A DNA stretch of 64,000 bases, taken from contig MIAY01000014.1 of NCBI GenBank assembly GCA_001829315.1, positions 60,801 to 124,800 on the forward strand. The letters are read 5' to 3'. This document shows, in pieces, positions 4,888-33,087 of the stretch. How positions within the stretch are numbered: position 1 is the first letter of the stretch; every line of letters starts with the position of its first letter. The DNA comes from Spirochaetes bacterium GWE1_32_154. GTDB taxonomy: Bacteria > Spirochaetota > GWE2-31-10. The translations under genes and the position numbers were made by a program. The notes beneath the pieces are model-generated. The model was not told where the DNA came from and searched no databases. It saw nothing but the letters and a program-made list of their open reading frames with translations.

Positions 4888-5815
4888 TCTTTAATTTTAC
4901 AAAATTATTTATATTCACCCCAATATCTTTAATTGAATCAATATATTCATAAAACTGTTCTTTTGTAACCGATGCTTTAGCAAATTTTATCATATCCAGT
5001 TTATTTAAAATAGTACTTGTTTTGTATATTAATTCATTTTCAACTTGAGATTCACGTAAAGATGAAATAAGTTCTCTTGTTGTTTCTGAAACAGCATTAA
5101 ATGCTAATAATCGATATATAAACTCTTTAAATGTTTCTGATAAAACGGATATTTTCATCTCATATTCTTTTCTGTCTTCAGTTTCTAATCGTATTTTTTC
5201 AAGATCAGAAATAAATTTTTCAAATGAAGATATTGCATTAGAACTATCTTTATTTTTTTTACTCTTTATTAATCTTTTAATAATAAATTTATATACAATT
5301 AAAATAATAAATACGATTAATATGACAATAAAAATTAATAACAAAATATTTTCAAAATAAAATCTGAATTTATATATATCTTTATTGTTCTTTAATTCAA
5401 TTTTTTCAGGTTCTTTGATTTTTGAAAATGCGGTTTTCTCATCCTCAGTTAATACTGATTCGATTATAATTGTAAATTTCTTTGTTTCATATTCAATTAC
5501 AGTTCCACTTGATAATGAAACAGGAATTGTGAAAAATAAATTATCAAATGTACCGTCTTCAAAAATAGCACAAATATAAGTACACTGAATTGTATCATTT
5601 GATTGAACATAGGTTGAAGAAACAATCTCAAGAGGAGCTGTTACTTTCTGAATTTCTTTTAAAACAGAATATTTTTCTTGTACCGGTAAATTAAATGTAA
5701 CGGTAAATTTATCACCTATTTTTAAATTTGTCTGTGAAATATTGATATCAATTGAAGTATTAGAATAAATAAGAACATTTATAAAAATGAACAAAAAAAT
5801 AATTATATTTTTCAT
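4853..5815 (-). CDS. Hypothetical membrane protein of the MoxR/Bat operon (occupies the position usually held by a DUF4381-type protein)
   Basis: 320 aa ORF with signal peptide and one internal TM helix; overlaps both neighbours; family assignment is by position only. Confidence 0.5.
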   Translation of the reverse strand: MKNIIIFLFIFINVLIYSNTSIDINISQTNLKIGDKFTVTFNLPVQEKYSVLKEIQKVTAPLEIVSSTYVQSNDTIQCTYICAIFEDGTFDNLFFTIPVSLSSGTVIEYETKKFTIIIESVLTEDEKTAFSKIKEPEKIELKNNKDIYKFRFYFENILLLIFIVILIVFIILIVYKFIIKRLIKSKKNKDSSNAISSFEKFISDLEKIRLETEDRKEYEMKISVLSETFKEFIYRLLAFNAVSETTRELISSLRESQVENELIYKTSTILNKLDMIKFAKASVTKEQFYEYIDSIKDIGVNINNFVKLKNERENELNTIR

Positions 5816-6705
5816 TTTCGAATTTTTTTCCTTTTTTCAAAATATGAAATGATTGCTTTCTCAGTGTTTTCATTGGTATTAATAATAAGCGGTGTTATAT
5901 TATTTTTTTTAAATTCCTGCAAAATTGCTTCTCTTTTTTCAATTCTATTTCTTATCATTTTTTTATAGGATGCTGAGCTTGTGTCAATTAGCATTCTTTT
6001 ACCATTTTCATTGTCAATTGCATCAACTAATCCGACATTGATTTCTGAAAATTCAAATACATCATTAATTATAACTGGAATTAAGTCATGTTTTCTTGAT
6101 AAGATATACAATTTTGAGCTGTCTATCTCAGAAAAAAAATCAGAAAATAAAAAAATAACACCCTTTCGTTTCATTGTTTTCAGCGTAAAATCAAAAGCCC
6201 CATTAATATCAGTTAACAGCCCCTTTGGTTTGTAAAACAAAATATCTCTTATAAGACGCAATATTGAATTCTTATTTTTTGTAGGCGGAATATACTCTTC
6301 AATTTCATTTGTAAAAAAAACAGCACCGATTTTATCCTGATTAAATAAACCTGTAAATGATAAAATTGCTGCAGTTTCCAGAAGAATATCTTTTTTTAAT
6401 TTTAATCCTGAACCATATTTTAAAGAACCTGATAAATCAAGAAGCATAAGCACATTAAGTTCTCTTTCTTCCTTATATCTTTTTATATAAGGAACTCCAT
6501 GGCGTGCAGTAACATTCCAATCTATTTTTCTTACATCATCACCTGGAATATATTCTCTTACTTCCTGAAATTCAATTCCCTGTCCTTTAAAAACTGAAGA
6601 ATAACCGCCGGAAGAAACATCAGCAACAAGTACACCTGCTTTCAACTCTATTCTTTTAATTCTTTTTAAAAGCTCAGGGGGTATTTTGTCATTTTCATTT
6701 TTCAT
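5812..6705 (-). CDS. DUF58 family protein (MoxR-associated VWA-like)
   Basis: 297 aa; motifs VREYIPGDDVRKIDWNVTAR and LLDLSGSL typical of DUF58 proteins encoded next to MoxR ATPases. Confidence 0.75.
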   Translation of the reverse strand: MKNENDKIPPELLKRIKRIELKAGVLVADVSSGGYSSVFKGQGIEFQEVREYIPGDDVRKIDWNVTARHGVPYIKRYKEERELNVLMLLDLSGSLKYGSGLKLKKDILLETAAILSFTGLFNQDKIGAVFFTNEIEEYIPPTKNKNSILRLIRDILFYKPKGLLTDINGAFDFTLKTMKRKGVIFLFSDFFSEIDSSKLYILSRKHDLIPVIINDVFEFSEINVGLVDAIDNENGKRMLIDTSSASYKKMIRNRIEKREAILQEFKKNNITPLIINTNENTEKAIISYFEKRKKIRK

Positions 6706-13701: not shown

Positions 13702-15042
13702 GTGGTAAATAATATGGAACTAAAATTTCAAACAGAAAAGAAAGAAAACTCACAGATTCAATTATCAGTAACAATTGATAAAAATGAAATTGCATCACAA
13801 TACAAAGAATTACTTAATGAAACACAAAAAAACATTGTTATGAATGGTTTTAGAAAAGGAAAAGTTCCTTTATCAATTATAGAAACAAAATATAAAAAAG
13901 CATTACTTGCCGAAGTTGCCCATAAATTAGTTGATAAAAGTTATCAGGAAATTTTTGAGAAACTAGAAGATAAACCATTGGCAACAAGTACTCCGACACT
14001 TGATGATATAGAAGAAATTAAACTGGATAGTGATTTTACTTATAAAATTACATACGAAACATATCCAACAATTACTTTTGGTGAATATAAAAATATTGAA
14101 ATTGAAAAAGATGAAATTACAGCTTCAGAAAAAGACATTTCAGAAGAAATAAATAGGTATTTATCAGAATTTTCATCAATCGAAACAAAAGATTCTCAAA
14201 TTGAAGACGGTGATATAGCATTAATTGAATACAAAGTATTCGAAGGTGATACTGAAATAGAATCAAAAGACAATGAGTATGTTCATATTGGTAAAGATTA
14301 TGATAAATATAAAATCGGTAAAGAATTAATCGGTTTAAAAAGCAGTGATACTAAAGACTTCAAAAAGAAATTCACTGATAAAGATGGAGACGCATTTGCC
14401 GGAAAAACATATAAATTCAAAGCAACAGTTAAAGAAGTAAAAGTTGAAAAAAAACCGGAACTAACTGACGAACTTGCTAAACAAATTGATAAAACTGTTG
14501 AAACTGCTGAAGCATTTAAAAATAAAGTTAAAGAAAATCTTGAACACTATGCAGCTGATACAACAAAACAAAAAGCAATTGATAAAATAATGGATAAAAT
14601 TATTAAAACATTCAAAGGGGTTGTACCTCAATCAATGATCGACGCACAAATCGACTCATATTATAAAGAGCTTTTACAAAAAGTTGGCGGTGATGAAAAG
14701 CGTGCTAATAATATGCTTAGTCTTGAGGGGTTAAATAAAGAAACATACAGAGAAAAAATGAAAGAAAAAGCAACTAATGCTATTCAACGTTCATTAATAC
14801 TCAATGAAATTATAAAAAAAGAAAGCATAAAAGCTACAGAAGAAGATATAAAAGCTCATATTAATAAATTTGCAAAATTTTATAATCTCAATACAAATGA
14901 TCTTTTTGATAATTACAAAAAGAACAATCAATTAGCAATGTTTGAAGGCGAAGTAGAAATAGAAAAAGCTATTGATATTATTTATAATTCACTTAAAGCT
15001 AAAAAAATTAACAAACTTTCACTAAAAGAGCTTGACGATTAA
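13702..15042 (+). CDS. tig: Trigger factor
   Basis: 446 aa; N-terminal ribosome-binding GFRKGKVP motif, FKBP-like middle domain; conserved tig-clpP-clpX-lon order. Confidence 0.92.
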   Translation: MVNNMELKFQTEKKENSQIQLSVTIDKNEIASQYKELLNETQKNIVMNGFRKGKVPLSIIETKYKKALLAEVAHKLVDKSYQEIFEKLEDKPLATSTPTLDDIEEIKLDSDFTYKITYETYPTITFGEYKNIEIEKDEITASEKDISEEINRYLSEFSSIETKDSQIEDGDIALIEYKVFEGDTEIESKDNEYVHIGKDYDKYKIGKELIGLKSSDTKDFKKKFTDKDGDAFAGKTYKFKATVKEVKVEKKPELTDELAKQIDKTVETAEAFKNKVKENLEHYAADTTKQKAIDKIMDKIIKTFKGVVPQSMIDAQIDSYYKELLQKVGGDEKRANNMLSLEGLNKETYREKMKEKATNAIQRSLILNEIIKKESIKATEEDIKAHINKFAKFYNLNTNDLFDNYKKNNQLAMFEGEVEIEKAIDIIYNSLKAKKINKLSLKELDD

Positions 15043-15081
15043 CAACTTAAATACGTATATTATACATTCAAGGGGAAATAA

Positions 15082-15696
15082 ATGATAATTACACCGTATA
15101 TGGGACATGGAATACTTCCGAGAATAGTAGAAAGAACAAGTCGCGGTGAAGAAGTCTGGGATATTTATTCAAGACTCATTAAGGATAATATTATATTTAT
15201 TGGTGGTGAAATCAATGATTTTGAAGCTGATACTGTAATGGCAACTTTACTATTTATGGAAAGTCAGGATCCAGATAAAGATATATCGCTTTATATAAAT
15301 TCTCCCGGTGGCTCTGTTACAGCAGGACTTGCAATATTTGATACAATAAAAAATATCAAACCTGATGTTTCAACTATTTGTATTGGACAAGCTGCAAGTG
15401 CAGCAGCATTAATACTATCAAGTGGAACGAAAGGTAAAAGATTTGCATTGCCTCATTCACGAATAATGCTTCATCAACCCTGGGGTGGCGCAGGTGGTCA
15501 GGCTTCAGATATCATTATTCAGGCTAATGAAATAAATAGAATAAAAAAACAAATAAACACTATTTTAGCCGAAAACTGTAGTAAACCTTTAGAACAAATA
15601 GAGCAGGATACACAAAGAGATTTCTTTTTATCCCCTACTGAAGCATTAGAATATGGATTAATTGATAAAATTTTGAAGAGAGAAGATAAAAAATGA
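15082..15696 (+). CDS. clpP: ATP-dependent Clp protease proteolytic subunit ClpP
   Basis: 204 aa; catalytic Ser motif GQAASAAA and MLHQPWGG. Confidence 0.95.
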
Positions 15697-16964
15697 GCAA
15701 ATATAAAATGAATTTTGAAGACATCTGTTCGTTCTGTGGTAGAAATTTAGAAGAGTATAATCTAAAATTCGTACGGGGTTTTAATTGCAGTATTTGTTCT
15801 GATTGTATAAAAAAAGGATACACGGCAGTTAAATCAACTGAAACAGATGGTGTACTCAATTCATTAGAAGATAGCAAACTTCCTTCTCCAAAAGAGATTA
15901 AAGGTTTTCTTGACCAATATGTTATCGGTCAGGAAGATGCAAAAAAATATATGTCTGTAGCCGTATACAATCATTATAAAAGAATTGTATACGGTTTAGA
16001 TTTATCTGATTCAGAACATTATAAAGATCTTGAAGTAGAAAAATCAAATATTCTTTTAATAGGACCCACCGGTTCAGGTAAAACACTGATTGCAAAATCA
16101 TTAGCAAAGAAATTAAACGTTCCATTTGCAATCGCTGATGCAACAACGTTAACTGAAGCCGGTTATGTTGGCGATGATGTTGAAAATATTTTACTTAAGT
16201 TAATACAGGCAGCTGATTACAATATACCTCTTGCCGAAAAAGGCATCATATACATTGATGAAATTGATAAAATCGCAAAAAAAGGCGAAAATATGTCTAT
16301 TACAAGAGACGTATCAGGTGAAGGTGTCCAACAGGCCTTATTAAAAATTATTGAAGGAACTGAAGCCTCAGTACCTCCGCAAGGCGGACGAAAGCACCCT
16401 AATCAGGAATTGCTTCAAATTAATACAAAAAATATTTTATTTATTTGTGGCGGTGCATTTGTTGGTCTTGATAAAATATTAGAAGCTCGAATTAATGTTA
16501 AACCTATGGGTTTTGGTGCAGAAATAGTAAAATCAAAAGACAAAAATATGGTTTCACTTTTTAAAAATCTTCATCCTGAAGATTTAGTGAAATTTGGTTT
16601 AATCCCTGAGTTTGTCGGACGACTTCCAATAATTACAACATTAAACCCGTTAACTGAAGATGATCTTGTTAAAATAATTAAAGAACCAAAAAATTCAATT
16701 CTAAAACAATTTGAATGGGCTTTCTCAATTGAAAATGTTTCATTTGAATTTACTGAAGAAGCTATACGTGCAATGGCGATTAAAGCAATCAAGCAAAACA
16801 CCGGTGCTCGAGGTTTACGATCCATTATGGAAAAATTAATGCTTGATGCAATGTATGAAGTCCCGTCAGTTGATGATATCGAAAAAATTATTGTTGACGA
16901 AGAAGTCATTAATCAAGATATCCCTGTAAAGATTATAAAAAAAGGTGCATCTAAAACAGCATGA
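15693..16964 (+). CDS. clpX: ATP-dependent Clp protease ATP-binding subunit ClpX
   Basis: 423 aa; N-terminal C4 zinc finger (CSFCGR...CSICSDC), Walker A GPTGSGKT. Confidence 0.95.
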
Positions 16965-19345
16965 AAATATTAAAAAAAGACAATAGTTTCTCATATAATA
17001 CTCTTCCAATAATACCATTGAGAGAGATGGTTATTTTTCCCAATGTCATAAAAACATTTTATGTCGGTAGAAAGGAATCAATTACAGGAATTGAAAAAGC
17101 AATTGAAAATTTTGACAGCAAAGTTTTTTTAGTTACTCAAAAGAGTTCAAATATTAATAATCCGGGAATAAATGATTTATATGATATCGGTGTTATCGCT
17201 AATATTATCGAAGTTAAACCTACACCTGATAAAAAGGTTTTAAAACTTGTAATAAAAGGTATAAAACCTTGCAAACTTACAGAGATTATCGATTGTAATG
17301 ATTTCAACACAGCAAATATTGAATATCTTGGAGATGCAATAATTGAAGATCCCAAAAAAGTAGAAACTTTATTTTCTTTAATCAATAAAGAATTTAAAAA
17401 ATTTGTTGAGCAATCAAGATTTCAACCTGATATAGTACGAAATATTGAATCATCTAAAAATCATATTGATTTTTTCAATAACATAATGCAGTATTTAACT
17501 GTAAATATTGAAACTCAAATTGAAATACTTCGGGATAACAGGATCGACACTTATTTTTCGAAACTCGCTGAACTAATTTATGCTAATATTGAAAATGTCC
17601 AACTTGAAAAAAAAATAACCATGGAAGTTCGTAAAAAGATGGAAAAAAATCAAAAAGATTTTTTCCTTTATGAACAAATGAAAGAAATACAAAAAGAACT
17701 CGGTAATTCTCCTGAGGAGAATGAATTTTATAATATTGATGAATTTATAAAAAAACTTGATTCAATGGGTATTCCCGCTGAAATAAAAGAAAGAATTGTA
17801 AAAGAACAAAAGCGACTAATGAAAATGCCTCCAATATCACAGGAATCAGGTATAATAAAAAATTATATTGATACACTTCTTGAATTGCCATGGAGTATAA
17901 ATAGTGAAGATAATAAAGATTTAAATAAAGCAAAAGAGATCCTTGACTCGAAACATTATTCTTTAACAAAAGTAAAAAGTAGAATTTTAGAGTTTCTTGC
18001 AGTCAGACAATTAAATCCAAATACAAAAGGTCCAATACTTTGTTTTATAGGTCCTCCGGGAACCGGAAAAACAAGTCTTTCAAAATCTGTCGCAGATGCA
18101 ATTAATAGAGAATTCCTTCGTATTTCCTTAGGCGGAGTTCGCGATGAAGCAGAAATTAGAGGACATAGAAGAACGTATTTAGGTGCTCTACCCGGAAAAA
18201 TTATACAATCGATGAAAAAAGTTAAGACACTTAATCCGGTATTCCTTCTTGATGAAATTGACAAAATGAGTTCTGACTTTCGTGGTGACCCAGCATCAGC
18301 ACTTCTTGAAGTATTAGACCCTGAGCAAAATCAACAATTTGTTGATCATTTCCTTGAGGTTCCCTATGATTTATCAGCTGTTATGTTTATTTGTACAGCT
18401 AATTCAGTACAAGGAATTCCATACCCCCTACTCGATCGAATGGAACTAATATATATAAACAGTTATTCTGATGAAGAAAAAATAAAAATTGTACGAAATT
18501 TTATTATCCCAAAAGAAAAAATAGAAAATGGAATAGGTAATGTTGAATTAGCTATATCCCAAGCAGCTTTAAAAGAGATAATAAGAAATTATACTATGGA
18601 ATCAGGTGTGCGATCACTTCAAAGACAAATTGCTTCAATATGCAGAAAAACGGCAAAAGAAATCGTTTTAAATAACACACATACTGAAAAAATGACTATT
18701 TCAACAAAAAATCTTTCAAAATTCCTTGGTAAAAAGAAATACCTTGAACCTTCAATTGATGATTTTTTAGACATTGGGGTTGCTCATGGTCTGGCATGGT
18801 CCGAATTAGGCGGTGCATTATTACCAATTGAAATAGTATTATACCCCGGTAAAGGCGGAATTATATTAACGGGTAAACTTGGTGAAGTTATGAAAGAATC
18901 TGCTCAAACAGCTTTTTCTTACATTAAATCAAAAAGTCATTTATTTGCAATTAAATATCCTGACTTTAGTAAAGAATATGATTTACATATTCATTTTCCT
19001 GAAGGTGCCACACCAAAAGACGGCCCTTCCGGAGGTATAGCAATAACCTGCGGTATTTTATCAGCATTAACAAAAACCCCGATTAAGACAACTGTAGCGA
19101 TGACCGGAGAGGTTACACTTACCGGCAGAGTATTAGCAATTGGCGGATTACGGGAAAAATCACTTGCTGCACTACGGCATGGAAAAAAAGAAGTTGTTGT
19201 CCCTTTTGCAAATACGAAAGATTTACAGGATTTACCAGGTAATGTAAAAAGTAAAATTGAATTTAAAACGGTAAAAAGAGTAGAAGATTTATTTGGTATT
19301 GTTTTTGACAGTTCAATATATTTAGAAAATGAAAACAACAATTAA
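16961..19345 (+). CDS. lon: ATP-dependent protease Lon
   Basis: 794 aa; LON N-domain, Walker [10 protein letters not shown], protease domain with PKDGPSGG. Confidence 0.95.
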
Positions 19346-26166: not shown

Positions 26167-28038
26167 ATGATACATAGAGATTACGACATTATAATAGTAG
26201 GTGGTGGGCATGCAGGTTGTGAAGCTGCATATATAGCATCAAAAAGAGGATATAAAACCATTCTAATAACCCAGAATCCTGATACAATTGCAAAAATGAG
26301 TTGTAACCCATCAATTGGCGGAATCGGGAAAGGACACCTTGTAAGAGAATTAGATGCATTAGGCGGTATAATGGCTAAAACAATAGACCGTTCAATGATT
26401 CAATTCAGAATGTTAAATACTAAAAAAGGACCTGCTGTTCAAGCAATGCGTTCACAAGCTGATAAACTTGATTATCATGTCGCAATGAAAAAAACTCTTG
26501 AAAACAGTAAAGATCTTGATATATTTATGGATACTGTTGTGGACTTAAAAATAGAAAACAACGCAATTATTGGTGTCATAACAGAGCGGGGAAATACAAT
26601 TTCTGCTAAAGCTGTAGTATTAACCACCGGAACATTTATGGAAGGAAAAATACACATCGGACAATATAACAGTATGAATGGAAGAATTGGAGAATTAGCA
26701 GCATTAGGTTTATCTGCTAATCTTCGAAAGATCGGATTTGATGTCGGTAGATTAAAAACAGGAACCCCTGCACGAGTTACCAAAAGAAGTATAGATTTTT
26801 CAATACTTGAAAAACAGGATGGTGACCCGATGCTATTTCGTTTTGCAAATTTTGATGACACTCCAATAGACCGGCCAAATGTGCCTTGTTATGTCACTTA
26901 TACAAATGAAAAAACGCATTCAATTCTTCGTGATAATTTTGAACGCTCTCCTTTATTCTCAGGACGTATAAAAGGTGTCGGCCCCCGTTACTGCCCTTCT
27001 ATAGAAGATAAAGTAAAGAAATTCCCGGATAGAGAAAGACATCAGGTTTTTATAGAACCGGAAGGTTTGTATACGGATGAACTTTATTTAAACGGGTTAT
27101 CAACATCAATGCCGGAAGATGTGCAATACGCATTCTTAAAATCTATTGCGGGGTTTGAAAATATTGAGATAGTCAGACCGGCATACGCTGTAGAATATGA
27201 CTATCTTAATCCGATTCAATTAAAACCATCACTTGAAACAAAACTTATTTCAGGGTTATTTTTAGCTGGTCAAACCAATGGCACTTCAGGATATGAAGAA
27301 GCTGCAGCTCAAGGTACTATTGCAGGGATTAATGCATGTCTATTCGTAGAAGGTTCAGAACCATTAATACTGGGAAGAGATGAAGCGTATTTAGGTGTTC
27401 TTATTGACGACCTGGTAACTCAAGGGACTACTGAACCATATAGAATGTTTACATCGCGTGCTGAATATCGTTTACGACTGCGACAGGATAATTGTGATTT
27501 ACGACTCACTCAATATGCAATTGAAAGAGGTTTTATTTCCGGGGTTGAAAAAGATAGATTTGAAAATCGAATCATTGAAATATCCACAATAAAAGACCTT
27601 CTTAATAAAACAAAACTAAAAAAAGATCAGATTGAATTAATCAATCTGCAAGGAATAAAAAGCGGTTCAAAATGGGAAGATTATATAAAAAACCCGAATA
27701 CTGATTTTCAAGATGCTTTTAGTTTATTTATTAAAGATTTTTCAAATATCACTCAATCCTCATTTAATACTGCTGCTATAGAAATAAAATATGAAGGGTA
27801 TGTGGCAAAACAGGAAAAAGATGTTCAAAAAACAAAAAAACAAACAGAACGAATCATCCCGCTTGATATAAACTATGATGATATCCGTGGCATTTCAAAT
27901 GAAAGTCGGGATAAGTTCAAATCAGTAAAACCTGTGAATATAGGTCAGGCATCACGAATCAGCGGAATAACACCGGCAGACATTACAATTTTAAGTATTT
28001 ATATATACACCCAAAATCAGAAGAAAAATAAATTATAA
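26167..28038 (+). CDS. mnmG: tRNA uridine 5-carboxymethylaminomethyl modification enzyme MnmG (GidA)
   Basis: 623 aa; FAD-binding [13 protein letters not shown]-terminus, full-length GidA architecture. Confidence 0.95.
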
Positions 28039-28056: not shown

Positions 28057-29466
28057 TTAATCAATATCACCTTTTGTTTGTAATAAATGCCCTATTTCTT
28101 TTAATATTTCTGTCAATTGTTTCTTTTCTACAACCTCAAGCATTCTTGATTCAATAAAATTAATAGCAGTATCACTAAAACTGCCGGCAGTAATACAAAC
28201 TCCTTTATCTGTTTTTTCATCTTTTAACATATTATAAATATTTCTAACTGTAAAATCACCAATGATTGTATTTGATCTAAAAAAAATAAAATAATATGTT
28301 AAAACAAATTTATTACTGGAAACTTCAACACGTATCTCCATTTCACCTCTTTGATTTAACTGAGTCGAAATATATTTAAGATTACCTGTCAGCGTTGAAT
28401 ATTTTGAAATATAATATTTCACAAACATTTTACAAATATTGGTAAATTCGTTGATAGAACCAATCAAATATTTTTCTAATAAAGTATTTCTCGCAAGCTG
28501 TGCATATAAATCGATTTTTTGTTGAACATCTTTATATGACGCATCGATTTTAGCAGCTTCTTCTAAATAATACAGAGATTTTGCAACATTATGGATATTA
28601 AAATAACATTCAGATAATAAATAATACATTTCCAATAAATATGCTGTTTTTGATGAAAATTTATCTTTCATTTTAATTAATTTTTCTAGCATTTCTATTG
28701 CTTGAACATATGCTTTATCTTTTTTATTAATATTTGCAATAATAAATAATGCATCAATAGAATATTTATCAATATTCATAATATTAACTAAAATCCGTTT
28801 TGCATCTTCACTTTTATTCAATTTATAAAGTCCATACCCCATATAATATAAAGCTTCATAGTCATCAGGTTTCAATTCAATAATTTTACTCATAGAATTA
28901 ACACATTCACGATATGAACCTGCTTGAAATGATAAAATTCCTTTAATTTTTTGAGACTCTTCGTCTTCCGGCTTAACCCTTGAAGCAATTGTCATAAAAG
29001 CCAATGCTTTTTCGAAATTTTCAGCATCATATTCAATTTTACCCAAATAAAAATTAGTTTCAAAATCAAGATCATCAATTTTTTTAGCAAATGAAAAATA
29101 TTTTTTTGCATCAGCAATATTATTGAGATGATAATAACTTTTTCCGGCTGTTACAGTATATTTTAATTCACTTATATCAGGATTTGAAACTGAAGCATCA
29201 ATTAATAACATGCATTCTTTGATAGCCGGTAAATACATTTTTGACAAAAACAAAACCTCTACTAATTTTTCTCTTGTTTTATGATCTGATGGTTTATTTT
29301 TCAAAATTTTCCTTAATTCATCTATAGCAAGGTAACTATTTTCTTTATTGATATTTTTTAAATTGCTGTCAACTTTCTTTTTTCCCATTTTTTTTAACAC
29401 TGTAATGGCAATTGAAAAAAAAACTATTAAACCACACAAAAGAGTAAGTATTAAAAGTATATCCAC
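28057..29466 (-). CDS. Membrane-anchored TPR-repeat protein with C-terminal restriction-endonuclease-like (Mrr-cat-like) domain
   Basis: 469 aa; N-terminal TM helix, several TPR-like repeats, C-terminal segment (TIIGDFTVRNIYNMLKDEKTDKGVCITAGSFSDTAINFI) resembling the Mrr catalytic-fold region. Confidence 0.5.
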   Translation of the reverse strand: MDILLILTLLCGLIVFFSIAITVLKKMGKKKVDSNLKNINKENSYLAIDELRKILKNKPSDHKTREKLVEVLFLSKMYLPAIKECMLLIDASVSNPDISELKYTVTAGKSYYHLNNIADAKKYFSFAKKIDDLDFETNFYLGKIEYDAENFEKALAFMTIASRVKPEDEESQKIKGILSFQAGSYRECVNSMSKIIELKPDDYEALYYMGYGLYKLNKSEDAKRILVNIMNIDKYSIDALFIIANINKKDKAYVQAIEMLEKLIKMKDKFSSKTAYLLEMYYLLSECYFNIHNVAKSLYYLEEAAKIDASYKDVQQKIDLYAQLARNTLLEKYLIGSINEFTNICKMFVKYYISKYSTLTGNLKYISTQLNQRGEMEIRVEVSSNKFVLTYYFIFFRSNTIIGDFTVRNIYNMLKDEKTDKGVCITAGSFSDTAINFIESRMLEVVEKKQLTEILKEIGHLLQTKGDID

Positions 29467-29496
29467 TTGTCCTCCAAAAAATTTTTATATGAAAAA

Positions 29497-29606
29497 CCTC
29501 TTGCAAAAATACTTTTCTTTTCTCGAATTTTTGCATGAGGGTACTTCTAACGCAATTATATTGCGTATGGCGGGAGCAAAAATAATGTACTCATGATTTT
29601 TGCAAG
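29497..29606. promoter_or_regulatory. Divergent intergenic region with three copies of 12-mer TCTTGCAAAAAT (one direct, two inverted), candidate operator cluster
   Basis: TCTTGCAAAAAT at 29499-29510; ATTTTTGCATGA at 29527-29538; ATTTTTGCAAGA at 29595-29606; the first two form a 13/14 bp inverted repeat. Confidence 0.4.
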
Positions 29607-29802
29607 AACCTCTGAATATTCTAAATTATTTTTTAATTTTTTACAATAGCTGTACATGCAAATAAAAAATTTAATACTGATTAAAGATCTGCTTTATAGT
29701 TAAAATATTTTACAAGTATCTCTTAAGATAATACATTATAATGCCGAAAAAATAAATACTGCAATAAAAAAAAGCAGAATTTTACAATGTAAGGAGGACA
29801 AA

Positions 29803-30726
29803 GTGGCTCTCCCAAAAAGTATTGGAATTAGATTATTTGATGACAGTTTTGTTCCTGTTTTAACTGAAGGTGAAGTAAAAAATAAAAGAGTAATTTTAAC
29901 AACAGTAAGAGATAATCAGGAAAAGGCAATTATTGAACTGTTTGAAGGAACAAGTGATACTTGTTCTGAAAATGAATATCTTGGTAAATTAACAATCGAT
30001 ATAAATAGGAATACTGACAAAGGTGAACCGGGACTTGAGGTTAATCTACGATTAGATGATGATGGTGTTCTTTATGCAAAAGCATGGGATCAGGAAAGTA
30101 AAGAAGAGAGTGAAATAGTGATTGAACATTCTTCTGCAAGACAGATTATTCCTGAAACATTGACTGATGATGAGATCAATGATATGGGGGATACAAAATA
30201 TCAGGAAATTCCGAGTTATTATGAAGACTCAAATCAGGATTATGTGACTCACAAAATGAATAATGAACCTGTAACATCTTACAGCGAAGAAAAATCTCCG
30301 GATAAAAAACTGATTATTATAATTTTAGCAATTATTCTTTTATTAATTCTTGGTATCTTAGTATTTTTTATGCTAAAAAACAATGCTAAAAAAGAACCAA
30401 AACCAGTTGTTACCGAAACTATTGTTGAGACAACAAATGTTATTGAAGAACCTGAAATATTACCTCCGCCTGAAGAAATAAAACCGGTTGAAATGAAGCA
30501 GGAAACAGAAACAATAATTGGAACAAATAAACTTGAAGGTAAAAAGCACTTTGTAAAAAGAGGTGACAATCTATGGAATATTTGTAAAAAGTACTACAAA
30601 GATCCATGGTATTATCCGAATCTCGCTGAATTAAATCAAATAAATAACCCACGATTGATATTAGCAGGATCATATATTATAATACCGCAAAAATCATCAG
30701 TTAAAAGGTGGGATTTTTCCAGATAA
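29803..30726 (+). CDS. Membrane protein with N-terminal Hsp70 (DnaK) substrate-binding-domain-like region, single TM helix and C-terminal LysM domain
   Basis: 307 aa; GTG start preceded by AAGGAGG; residues 5-125 align by eye with the DnaK beta-sandwich SBD (SIGIRLFDD..VLTEG..DNQEKAIIELFEG..YLGKLTIDI..LEVNLRLDDDGVLYAKAWD); hydrophobic helix about 170-192; C-terminal LysM-like motif (HFVKRGDNLWNICKKYY..LAELNQINNP..ILAGSYIIIP). Confidence 0.6.
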   Translation: MALPKSIGIRLFDDSFVPVLTEGEVKNKRVILTTVRDNQEKAIIELFEGTSDTCSENEYLGKLTIDINRNTDKGEPGLEVNLRLDDDGVLYAKAWDQESKEESEIVIEHSSARQIIPETLTDDEINDMGDTKYQEIPSYYEDSNQDYVTHKMNNEPVTSYSEEKSPDKKLIIIILAIILLLILGILVFFMLKNNAKKEPKPVVTETIVETTNVIEEPEILPPPEEIKPVEMKQETETIIGTNKLEGKKHFVKRGDNLWNICKKYYKDPWYYPNLAELNQINNPRLILAGSYIIIPQKSSVKRWDFSR

Positions 30727-30815
30727 TATGTATAATCGATAAAAGCGTAATTATTTATAATTACGCTTTTTTTAGCATTTCGACACTTGTATTAATTTAA
30801 AAAAAATCGTAAGTT

Positions 30816-31808
30816 ATGAAAATGAATAAAAAACTCAATCATATAATTGTACTCTTAATTTTAATTTTTATTGGATGTAAATCTACTGTCCCCCCAATAG
30901 TATATGATCAATCATATTCAAATTTAAAAAATGAAATTGAAATTATAACACTATTAATTAATCAAAATGACTTTAATAATGCACAAAAAAGAATCAATCA
31001 AAACCTTTCAGTTTACAATAATGATTTACAACTATTGACACTATCGATTCATTTATTAACAAAAGAAGGTAAGTATTCTGAAGCATTAAATAATGCTGAG
31101 AATTTATTATTAAAAAACAAGTCAAATCCCCTGCTCTATGCTCTATTAGCAACGATTTATTATCATAATGGTGATATTGAAAAAGCACACAATTATATTA
31201 AATTATCATTAAGTATTTCAAAAAATATTTCTTATACATGGTATCAAAAAGGTTTTTTTGAATATAATGAAAAAAATTATAATGCATCTGAAATAAGTTT
31301 TAACAGAGCTTATTTATTGGATAAAAACAATACCGATGCTTATTTTTTTCGATATTTATCAAGACTTTACATACAACAGAATATTGACGAATTAAAAAAA
31401 GAATGGAACTTTATTAAAGAAAATATCATACTTTCGTCAGCTCATTATGTATATCATGCTATTGTTTTATATGAAATAAAGAGTATCAAAGATGCTGAAG
31501 AAATAATTAATGAAGGGTTCTCATTATTTCCCGATGATCCTTTTATTTTAAATTGCATCGCATACTTAATTACAATAAACTATAGTAATACTCAAGAAAA
31601 AGATGACTTGCTCTTAACAGATGCATTGGATAAAATATTGAAATCATTATCCTATACTATTCTGCCGGAATTCGCAGATACTCATTTACAAATACTTTAT
31701 TTACAGAAAAATTATACTGAACTGGAAAATAACTATAATAAATATAAACTTCTATTTCCTGAAAATCAAATTATTCAGGAATGGAATATAAAAATCAAAC
31801 CGGAGTAA
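30816..31808 (+). CDS. TPR-repeat lipoprotein
   Basis: 330 aa; signal peptide with LIFIGC lipobox, TPR-like repeats. Confidence 0.5.
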   Translation: MKMNKKLNHIIVLLILIFIGCKSTVPPIVYDQSYSNLKNEIEIITLLINQNDFNNAQKRINQNLSVYNNDLQLLTLSIHLLTKEGKYSEALNNAENLLLKNKSNPLLYALLATIYYHNGDIEKAHNYIKLSLSISKNISYTWYQKGFFEYNEKNYNASEISFNRAYLLDKNNTDAYFFRYLSRLYIQQNIDELKKEWNFIKENIILSSAHYVYHAIVLYEIKSIKDAEEIINEGFSLFPDDPFILNCIAYLITINYSNTQEKDDLLLTDALDKILKSLSYTILPEFADTHLQILYLQKNYTELENNYNKYKLLFPENQIIQEWNIKIKPE

Positions 31809-31812
31809 AATA

Positions 31813-33087
31813 ATGAAATATTCAATAATGAAAAACTCTTGCAAAAATACATTTTTTACTTCTTTTTTTTGCAAAAGCTTTTATATACTCTTTCTATTTA
31901 TAAGTCTGTCATGTTCAAACATGAAGGATAAAAGTAAAATAGTCCCGATTTTTTCTTTTGATATAGGTTATGATGAAAAAGAGTTAGGGCTGGTTAATGA
32001 AGTAATACATCAGGAACAAAAAAATATAAATTACTGTTATTCTAACGGTTTTTATTTTATTTCAGATAGAATCAATAATAAAATACTCAAAGTTACCGAA
32101 TCGGGAGAAATATTACTCACTATTTTTAATAAAATAAATTATCCTGTTATTGCTGAAAATACAGGTAACACTGATAATAATCAAACAAGTGATGTAGACT
32201 ATTTAATTCTATATAGTGAATACAATTTAATGTCTCCAGGGTTAATATCAGCTGATAATGAAAAGAATATTTTCATAATTAATAGCAACCCGGATTATAA
32301 AAAACTGAAAAATAATGTTGTTGAAGATAAAATAATCTTAAAATTTAATCCTAATGGTATACTGGAATTTGAATTAGGTCGAAATGGTATTAATACAGAA
32401 CCCTTTGGCTATATTATCAGCATGAAAAATGATGTAGATAATAATCTTGTTATTATTGAAAAAATGAATGATGGTTTTCAAATCTACAAATTCTCATCTC
32501 AAGGCACATTAATATTAAAATCAACAATTACATTAAAAAATATTCCTTTATTAAAAAATGAAATTAGTTACATTATTTCGTTTGTTGACATCAGATCAGA
32601 TTATCGGGAAAATGAAATTTATATTACCTGTCAATTTGCAAGTAAAGAAACGACAATGATGTTGGAAACATATTCTATTGAATATGAAAAGATTTATTTA
32701 TATTCGCTAAAAGAAAACAAAATATCAAAAATGTTATTAAAAATTAACCAGGAATATGAAGATTTATCTAAATTTAAATTAAATCAGGATATTACAGAAC
32801 TTTATGGAGATAAAAAATCAATTGCCAAGCCATTTCAATCAATAATCGGTTTAGATAATGTAAACAATATATATTTATTTCAGAAAGAAATTCCTTTTCA
32901 GAGTATTACTGCTAATAATCAATATATTATGAAATATCTCGAAACAGGTAAACTTAGTAAAACTTCTTTTGTTGAATTTGAAAAAAACGCACTTTTTGTT
33001 AATAATTACTATTTAACTAATGATGGAAGAATAATAACATACATAATTAAGGAAGATAAAATTAACTTTGTTAAAATACTACTGTAA
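31813..33087 (+). CDS. Hypothetical lipoprotein
   Basis: 424 aa; hydrophobic N-terminus with LSC lipobox-like motif; no recognisable domain; contains a fourth copy of the TCTTGCAAAAAT 12-mer at 31837-31848. Confidence 0.45.
   Translation: MKYSIMKNSCKNTFFTSFFCKSFYILFLFISLSCSNMKDKSKIVPIFSFDIGYDEKELGLVNEVIHQEQKNINYCYSNGFYFISDRINNKILKVTESGEILLTIFNKINYPVIAENTGNTDNNQTSDVDYLILYSEYNLMSPGLISADNEKNIFIINSNPDYKKLKNNVVEDKIILKFNPNGILEFELGRNGINTEPFGYIISMKNDVDNNLVIIEKMNDGFQIYKFSSQGTLILKSTITLKNIPLLKNEISYIISFVDIRSDYRENEIYITCQFASKETTMMLETYSIEYEKIYLYSLKENKISKMLLKINQEYEDLSKFKLNQDITELYGDKKSIAKPFQSIIGLDNVNNIYLFQKEIPFQSITANNQYIMKYLETGKLSKTSFVEFEKNALFVNNYYLTNDGRIITYIIKEDKINFVKILL

Follow-up and report, generated by a model that had tools for sequence, protein, structure and literature searches.

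An Hsp70 substrate-binding domain joined through a predicted membrane helix to a LysM domain in spirochaetes

The biology of Hsp70 is built on ATP-driven allostery between a nucleotide-binding domain (NBD), a substrate-binding domain (SBD) and a helical lid, and in canonical DnaK the SBD would sit at position ∼395 of the chain. Here, we describe a 307-residue protein that opens directly with an SBD, its first residue being the equivalent of DnaK ∼396, and continues through a single transmembrane (TM) helix into a LysM domain. It is encoded on the forward strand at positions 29803–30726 (stop codon 30724–30726) of a 64,000-nucleotide stretch of DNA from Spirochaetes bacterium GWE1_32_154 (contig MIAY01000014.1, positions 60,801–124,800), which we refer to as the window. 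The reading frame, backed by the list of open reading frames (ORFs) and by homologues, is present as set out in a first-pass annotation made from the sequence alone.

Among described proteins, the combination is noted in T. pallidum TPANIC_0042 (TP0042), a LysM peptidoglycan (PG)-binding protein for which an Hsp70 substrate/peptide-binding domain is predicted at the N-terminus; the May 2026 preprint that reports it calls this domain combination previously unreported, in one sentence that gives no topology, distribution, context or function (bioRxiv 10.64898/2026.05.05.717303). TPANIC_0042 and the window protein have the same domain combination and come from the same phylum, and are likened here by the preprint's description and through the Treponema sp. 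members of the superfamily. A second described system that bears on the locus is B. burgdorferi BB0259/MltS, a protein of 717 residues with a lipobox, an SLT domain at residues 559–717 and the catalytic residue E580, on which the assembly of periplasmic flagella, motility and cell shape depend (PMC8517470) and which is responsible for anhydromuropeptide release and needed for PG turnover (PMC12279116). MltS enters as a type of partner: it is not a homologue of the SBD-LysM protein, and its gene is absent from the window. In the literature on NBD-less Hsp70, on DnaK plus LysM, on TP0042 and on BB0258–BB0264, we found the preprint sentence and the MltS papers only.

The substrate-binding domain and its cleft

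Residues 1–112 (29803–30138) make up the β part of an Hsp70 SBD (SBD-β), with nothing of the NBD or the interdomain linker ahead of it. Pfam HSP70 (PF00012) aligns residues 4–156 with profile positions 391–536 of 599 (E = 1.8e-11; 43.5 bits against a cut-off of 20.6), so that the match takes in the substrate-binding part of Hsp70 and no more, and the matches to the NCBIfam DnaK and HscA models are confined to model positions ∼412–523 and score far under the whole-protein cut-offs. When the PDB was searched with phmmer, the top match was the E. coli DnaK SBD (E = 4e-12). An AlphaFold2 (AF2) model, for which the 37-sequence family alignment served as input, has a confident β-sandwich at residues 1–100 (predicted local distance difference test score, pLDDT, 78–89), and a Foldseek comparison with the PDB gave Hsp70 SBDs exclusively among the 50 matches listed (best E = 1.4e-9; for 3dqg_C, root-mean-square deviation 3.1 over 112 alignment columns). 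The initial annotation, which had placed an Hsp70 SBD without an ATPase domain at residues 5–125 and had proposed a fold search against Hsp70 SBD structures, was thus essentially right, the region being a lidless SBD-β.

No NBD is present in the protein: the Pfam, NCBIfam and PDB alignments all begin at the SBD, and there is no forward-strand coding sequence upstream that could supply one. The VLLLD interdomain linker is likewise absent from the N-terminus, and no helical lid is predicted, the AF2 model giving a helix at residues 122–128 only and disorder thereafter. In the model, the SBD proper is residues ∼4–112 plus this seven-residue stub of helix A; residues ∼129–167 are a disordered acidic linker and belong neither to the SBD nor to a lid, although HMMER aligns the stretch up to ∼160 to DnaK helices A and B.

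To see where conservation falls, we mapped the HMMER alignment of a superfamily set of 92 sequences onto DnaK numbering. The peptide contacts are the most conserved positions: the T428 equivalent in the L3,4 loop is T and the Q433 equivalent is Q in 92 of 92 sequences, and the S427 equivalent is T in 89. The pocket positions I401, F426, V436 and I438 also retain I, V or L across the superfamily, whereas the positions that dock the NBD in DnaK are not conserved in either alignment (K414 has become E; N415 reads G, N or D; D481 is variable). Conserved peptide contacts combined with variable NBD-docking residues therefore point to selection on the cleft and not on allostery. Arch and pocket are split by subfamily, with F or Y at position 12 and A at position 42 in the window's group and A12 plus V42 in the remainder, which suggests that binding specificity has diverged between subfamilies.

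In the close family, SBD-β and the LysM region are highly conserved and both linkers are free in length and composition; within the subfamily, the SBD is ∼65–75% identical and the linkers less than 30%. Just past the last β-strand, the motif Y[DE][IV]P[DE]F[DE]L is found in 59 of 91 superfamily members, compared with 1.7 expected by chance. The window's group has instead RIxPETL[ST]DxEI (29 of 37 sequences), which keeps the start of Hsp70 helix A (GLNEDEI in DnaK).

The gene has a ribosome-binding site and a terminator of its own and is probably expressed. A Shine-Dalgarno sequence, AAGGAGG, can be read at 29791–29797, 5 nt before a GTG codon at 29803, both as first annotated, and this start is supported by the 37 aligned homologues, most of which open at the same residue, with the shared sequence M/V-A-L-P-K-S-I-G-I. 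At 30741–30773 on the same strand, 15 nt past the stop codon, lies an intrinsic-terminator-like hairpin with a 13-bp stem, a 4-nt loop and a U tract (centroid −12.8 kcal/mol; z = −3.5 against shuffles in RNA folding). A terminator scanner reported nothing, although folding gives this clear hairpin, and a consensus promoter scan of 29400–30900 was uninformative (8 sites, 9.3 expected). Since the upstream gene runs on the opposite strand, the SBD-LysM gene looks like a separate transcription unit.

That the ORF matches only a part of Hsp70 could also mean that it is a remnant of dnaK or an annotation artefact. This reading is refuted by the conservation data, i.e., by the N-terminus shared among most homologues, by purifying selection and by the conserved fusion to TM and LysM; the lack of NBD-coding DNA upstream, the neighbour on the other strand and the strong ribosome-binding site (RBS) and terminator speak against it as well, and we give it practically no weight.

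The fusion is far from confined to the window. A word-indexed search returned 70 relatives, nearly all with the HSP70 and LysM Pfam pair and, where named, all from metagenome-assembled genomes (MAGs) of Spirochaetota; the nearest, at 93% identity, is listed under Spirochaetes bacterium GWF1_31_7 / GWE1_32_154 as a "hypothetical protein". The order SBD, acidic linker, TM, LysM is common to 37 of 37 close homologues. In an exhaustive HMMER search with the SBD only (residues 1–125) against 1.84 billion representatives, ∼10 close representatives were followed by ∼140 next-best matches that nearly all carry the SBD at the extreme N-terminus (proteins of 100–1023 residues; E from 1e-16 to 1e-11; 33–45% identity), and most of the proteins with an N-terminal SBD have the acidic linker and the single TM. 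Pfam finds HSP70 in 91 and LysM in 76 of 92 distant members, and in the ten longest (759–1023 residues) it finds a C-terminal LysM in all ten and HSP70 in nine. A profile search gave at least 423 clusters at E ≤ 1e-10, a count that is a lower bound, 8000 candidates having been scored.

Named members belong to Treponema sp., Spirochaetia and Spirochaetota (MAGs), and the database labels are generic: "Hsp70 family protein", "LysM (peptidoglycan-binding) domain-containing protein" or "YgaU". Two candidate members from outside the phylum were discarded; the myxococcotal locus (L008) encodes a full-length DnaK and was rejected, and a deltaproteobacterial locus (L009), which has the same SBD-only match and whose ORFs were not read, was set aside. 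By these sequence searches, SBD-TM-LysM is a large, spirochaete-wide family and not a rare one. The phylogenetic distribution, which the first-pass annotation had proposed to check, thus shows the fusion to be conserved and widespread in spirochaetes.

Membrane topology and the LysM domain

Residues 113–167 (30139–30303) hold the RIxPETL[ST]DxEI motif, the helix-A stub and the acidic linker, as delimited by the AF2 model, charge and motif count; they carry a net charge of −10, with pLDDT below 50 over residues 137–165, and residues 1–167 as a whole carry −21. The TM helix follows at residues 168–192 (30304–30378), where the Kyte-Doolittle maximum of 3.74 lies at 170–188 and AF2 places a helix at 167–192 (pLDDT ∼90). 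It is the only hydrophobic segment of this kind (∼170–190), as the first reading of the sequence had it, and 36 of 37 family members likewise have one TM. Beyond it, residues 193–245 (30379–30537) form a second linker, rich in P, E and T, variable in the alignment, modeled by AF2 as disordered at 195–241 (pLDDT below 50) and presumably periplasmic; across the superfamily, the C-side linker is richer in S, T and P than the N-side one.

The chain ends in the LysM domain (residues 246–307; 30538–30723), which had also been called from the sequence and is matched by Pfam LysM (PF01476) at residues 251–295 (E = 2.2e-8; 34.4 bits against a cut-off of 20.9). AF2 models a β-α-α-β unit at 247–294 with pLDDT ∼93 (strands 247–250 and 291–294; helices 257–265 and 268–277), and the flanks, GKKHF... 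and ...KRWDF, are specific to the family. The best match among solved LysM structures is the LysM of TsaP (E = 9e-6).

The same module also occurs outside the fusion. P0067, a 198-residue protein of Spirochaetes bacterium GWC1_27_15, has a lipobox (FYSC) and an extracytoplasmic Fn3-type domain (Fn3_assoc/CHB_HEX_C-type), and its C-terminus is the family-specific LysM module (GKKHFIRWGENLW...KRWDF) at 59% identity. From this likeness, the module has evidently been shuffled among proteins within the lineage of P0067.

The acidic linker is hypervariable in length, and the homologue in L007 (L007 7986–9491) has a hyper-acidic insert of ∼220 residues. Greatly expanded cytoplasmic acidic linkers are seen in the Treponema-type homologues of L016 (P0108) and L018 (P0187) and in L007, in proteins of 501–1023 residues in which ∼200–700 D/E-rich disordered residues run from the SBD to the TM and both end domains are conserved.

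Several lines of evidence bear on which side of the membrane each domain occupies. In the superfamily, K plus R average 4.05 in the N-terminal flank of the TM and 1.95 in the C-terminal flank, with N exceeding C in 66 of 87 sequences and C exceeding N in 8 (Wilcoxon p = 5.6e-12), and stretches such as RRKEHLHRRKRR are frequent immediately ahead of the TM. The SBD-LysM protein has no signal peptide, and the region preceding the TM comprises 150 to >600 residues, a folded domain included. Because of the superfamily charge bias, the absence of a signal peptide and the occurrence of the same LysM module in the lipoprotein P0067, a cytoplasmic SBD and an external LysM domain (N-in/C-out), as predicted in the first-pass annotation, have good but indirect support at the sequence level; what does not conform is the window's own subfamily, in which the TM flanks are net −0.4 (N) and +2.4 (C) over 37 sequences, opposite to the positive-inside rule.

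These flanks would suit the reverse arrangement, in which the SBD is translocated as an ATP-independent periplasmic chaperone (e.g., for flagellar or outer-membrane proteins) and the LysM-like domain remains cytoplasmic, like that of Kbp/YgaU. The extreme hydrophobicity of the TM and the negative charge of residues 1–167 could be read in the same way, and there is a precedent in that E. coli Kbp is a cytoplasmic LysM protein, with a weak match of the window protein to the NCBIfam YgaU-type LysM. We nevertheless consider inversion very improbable: without a signal peptide, N-tail translocation of a folded segment of 150 to >600 residues is unlikely, the superfamily charge bias is strongly opposite, the same LysM module is found in a lipoprotein with an extracytoplasmic domain, and the operon partner (see below) is a periplasmic PG enzyme. 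Nor does the kinship with YgaU hold at the level of the whole protein, since there is no BON domain and the model NF008399 scores 26.1 bits against a cut-off of 134, with the LysM part alone aligning (E = 9e-6). The "YgaU" label was accordingly rejected as annotation carry-over.

Gene neighbourhood and possible function

Two kinds of neighbour recur beside SBD-LysM genes. The first is the divergent gene upstream (28057–29466, reverse strand), which encodes a 469-residue protein with an N-terminal TM, TPR repeats and a C-terminal Mrr_cat-like domain (matches to Pfam TPR families, and to Mrr_cat at E = 2e-5); its body is predicted to be cytoplasmic because a K/R cluster follows the N-terminal TM anchor. 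This TPR-Mrr-like gene adjoins the SBD-LysM gene in ten loci (the window, L001, L002, L003, L006, L014, L015, L017, where it is split, L019 and L021), and these include SBD-LysM members merely ∼30% identical to the window protein. The second is a gene for a ∼700-residue protein with a C-terminal SLT domain, which lies directly downstream in L002, L014 and L015 (where the contig end cuts it), L016, L018, L019 and L020; pieces of an SLT domain lie downstream in L017. In most loci that have it, the SLT gene abuts or overlaps the SBD-LysM stop codon. The SLT proteins carry the catalytic ES at ∼552–592 and AYNAG at ∼621–676, and a lipobox is recognisable in L002, L014, L016, L018 and L020, with none in L019 as called. 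In their build, i.e., a divergent N-terminal domain, a C-terminal SLT domain with ES and AYNAG and, in most, a lipobox, they resemble MltS (Slt70-like).

The best explanation we can offer, held tentatively and with rather less than even confidence, is that the SBD-LysM protein acts as an adaptor across the membrane, linking a client in the cytoplasm with the places where PG is remodelled. The cleft cannot be ATP-driven, because the protein has neither an NBD nor an interdomain linker and retains neither the lid nor the residues that dock the NBD; lidless as it is, it would act as a passive, fast-exchange clamp that grips one particular cytoplasmic or membrane partner by an extended hydrophobic segment, with the LysM domain anchoring the protein to the PG sacculus. 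On the cytoplasmic side, the candidate client would be the co-conserved, membrane-anchored TPR-Mrr-like protein, and on the periplasmic side the adaptor may act with the translationally coupled MltS-type lytic transglycosylase lipoprotein that is present in most relatives.

A number of observations weigh against this proposal, besides the flank charges of the window's subfamily. Its partners are assigned from gene neighbourhood, which is indirect evidence of interaction. No SLT homologue was found in the whole window (tblastn, 1e-3), and L004, L007 and L021 have no SLT partner either, so the link to a lytic transglycosylase is not obligatory; the orthology of the SLT partners with BB0259 is drawn from their shared build and not from sequence comparison. 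In the TPR-Mrr-like protein, the canonical (E/Q)xK position reads F-x-R in seven of seven aligned orthologues, and the Mrr_cat-like domain may, on this evidence, be an inactive nuclease, a membrane-anchored PD-(D/E)xK fold. As for the missing SLT gene, L002, which belongs to the window's own subfamily, keeps an overlapping one, and the coupling is therefore probably ancestral and has been lost or moved in the window.

In eukaryotic Hsp70, the acidic EEVD tail binds TPR co-chaperones. By analogy, one may speculate that the conserved acidic motif past the SBD is a recognition site for the neighbouring TPR protein; the analogy is imperfect, the motif being internal here. A fuller scenario, which we regard as rather unlikely, would have the SBD part from its ATPase at an early stage of spirochaete evolution and become an ATP-independent module that couples across the membrane; its clamp would read a cytoplasmic state or partner jointly with the TPR-Mrr-like protein, and the LysM domain would position or gate the MltS-type enzyme by which the sacculus is opened for periplasmic flagella and PG turnover is driven. 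If true, it would amount to a new kind of regulator of cell-wall remodelling, derived from a chaperone and found in pathogens, T. pallidum among them.

Conservation within the SBD also bears on a different possibility, that of a membrane-tethered general holdase near the translocon, comparable to SecB or trigger factor without ATP, which would bind hydrophobic stretches exposed by many nascent secretory or membrane proteins and which the LysM domain would merely immobilise under the sacculus. In its favour, the generic hydrophobic pocket of Hsp70 is kept, the gene is often translationally coupled to that of an exported SLT lipoprotein, and in the window's subfamily other lipoprotein genes lie downstream. 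Yet an SBD so much better conserved than its linkers, with an arch and pocket specific to the subfamily, fits a specific, co-evolving partner better; a clamp fixed to the wall and devoid of a release mechanism would make a poor general chaperone; and none of the loci examined showed a link with sec genes. We judge a holdase to be distinctly unlikely.

The downstream genes in question are, in the window, a 330-residue TPR lipoprotein (30816–31808, forward strand; lipobox FIGC) and a 424-residue lipoprotein (31813–33087, forward strand; lipobox SLSC) that has no Pfam match. No homologue of either was detected in the related loci by tblastn. As a possible remnant of the N-terminal helical domain of the SLT partner, the TPR lipoprotein gave no more than a marginal similarity to that domain (one BLASTP comparison; 86 residues; E = 0.005).

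The layout of the protein invites one more comparison, with bitopic anti-sigma factors, which have a cytoplasmic binding domain, one TM and a periplasmic sensor domain. On such a scheme, the SBD would sequester a regulator in the way that DnaK sequesters sigma-32, releasing it when the LysM domain senses altered or damaged PG. The gene's own RBS and terminator would permit separate regulation, and in L018 a sigma-54 activator (L018 3234–4295) is encoded two genes upstream of the SBD-LysM gene, in this locus alone. Set against this, neither a sigma factor nor a transcription regulator recurs beside the gene across loci, no protease site and no gene for a protease of regulated intramembrane proteolysis is linked, and the neighbours that are conserved, a TPR protein and a PG enzyme, are not regulators; an anti-sigma-like device thus seems quite improbable, and the adaptor remains the reading we prefer.

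Other features of these loci can be noted briefly. Beyond the TPR-Mrr-like gene, the window has mnmG (gidA; 26167–28038, forward strand), which we treat as a syntenic marker and not as a functional part; mnmG is found beside the TPR-Mrr-like gene in L002, L003, L014, L019 and L021 as well, with or without mnmE and rsmG. In L019, FtsK is encoded next; in L017, it is close by. The TPR-Mrr partner of L017 (4524–5817) appears split or frameshifted, with a TPR match at 5817–4918 and a separate 126-residue Mrr_cat ORF at 4904–4524, and the downstream SLT gene is likewise fragmented; either the locus has decayed or the contig is misassembled here. Farther upstream in L018 (201–1681) is a CtpB_N/S41 peptidase pair, again in this locus alone, and a 604-residue product in L021 (7799–9613) has Ribosomal_S2 and EF_TS Pfam matches, which points to a genuine rpsB-tsf fusion or else to two genes called as one. 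Elsewhere in the window (13702–19345, forward strand) is a protein-quality-control cluster of tig (13702–15042), clpX (15693–16964) and lon (16961–19345), with a 204-residue ORF between tig and clpX (15082–15696) that is presumed to be clpP. A local dnaK operon was also sought, with no Hsp70 match among the window ORFs scanned.

Comparison with known systems

Set beside the DnaK SBD (PDB: 1DKX/1DKZ; E. coli DnaK residues 389–607), the window protein retains the T-T-x-x-D-N-Q of the L3,4 loop, the hydrophobic pocket and the L-[ST]-D-x-E-I at the start of helix A; unlike DnaK, it has no NBD, no VLLLD linker and no helices B–E, and is fused to a TM and a LysM domain. Lacking NBD, linker, lid and docking residues, it cannot run an ATP-driven chaperone cycle. 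Of the five features by which an Hsp70-family chaperone is defined, the protein lacks four (NBD, interdomain linker, lid and allosteric interface), and it should not be called one; the label "Hsp70 family protein" is true at the level of the domain only.

The likeness to other LysM proteins is narrower. E. coli Kbp (YgaU) is soluble and cytoplasmic, is built of BON plus LysM, and shares a similarity of LysM subtype only. In TsaP, the LysM of FimV, B. subtilis YneA and the SPOR-domain proteins FtsN and DamX, a PG-binding domain likewise fixes a membrane or envelope-spanning protein to the sacculus; these have no Hsp70-derived cytoplasmic domain, and the similarity is restricted to LysM (including a weak NCBIfam YneA match). 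The Treponema members found in the superfamily are ∼30% identical to the window protein and have much longer acidic linkers.

How new the architecture is can be stated in two parts. The first-pass annotation did not recognise it as a described family, and indeed we found no curated family model, structure or functional study of SBD-TM-LysM proteins; the claim needs qualifying in that members already carry generic database labels and TPANIC_0042 has its sentence in the preprint. What is already known, then, is both domains, and the fusion itself, present in databases under generic names and noticed once. What is new is the reach of the family across the phylum, the domain without lid or NBD and the selective conservation of its cleft, the topology statistics, and the gene cluster with TPR-Mrr-like and MltS-like partners. 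Relative to Hsp70, the family shows the peptide cleft put to new use as a recognition module in its own right, and it offers a natural "minimal SBD" to work with. Relative to MltS, our hypothesis is that SBD-LysM, TPR and MltS-type proteins help to decide where and when the sacculus opens. According to the one preprint, a T. pallidum protein belongs to the family, which makes the family relevant to pathogens in which genetic work is difficult.

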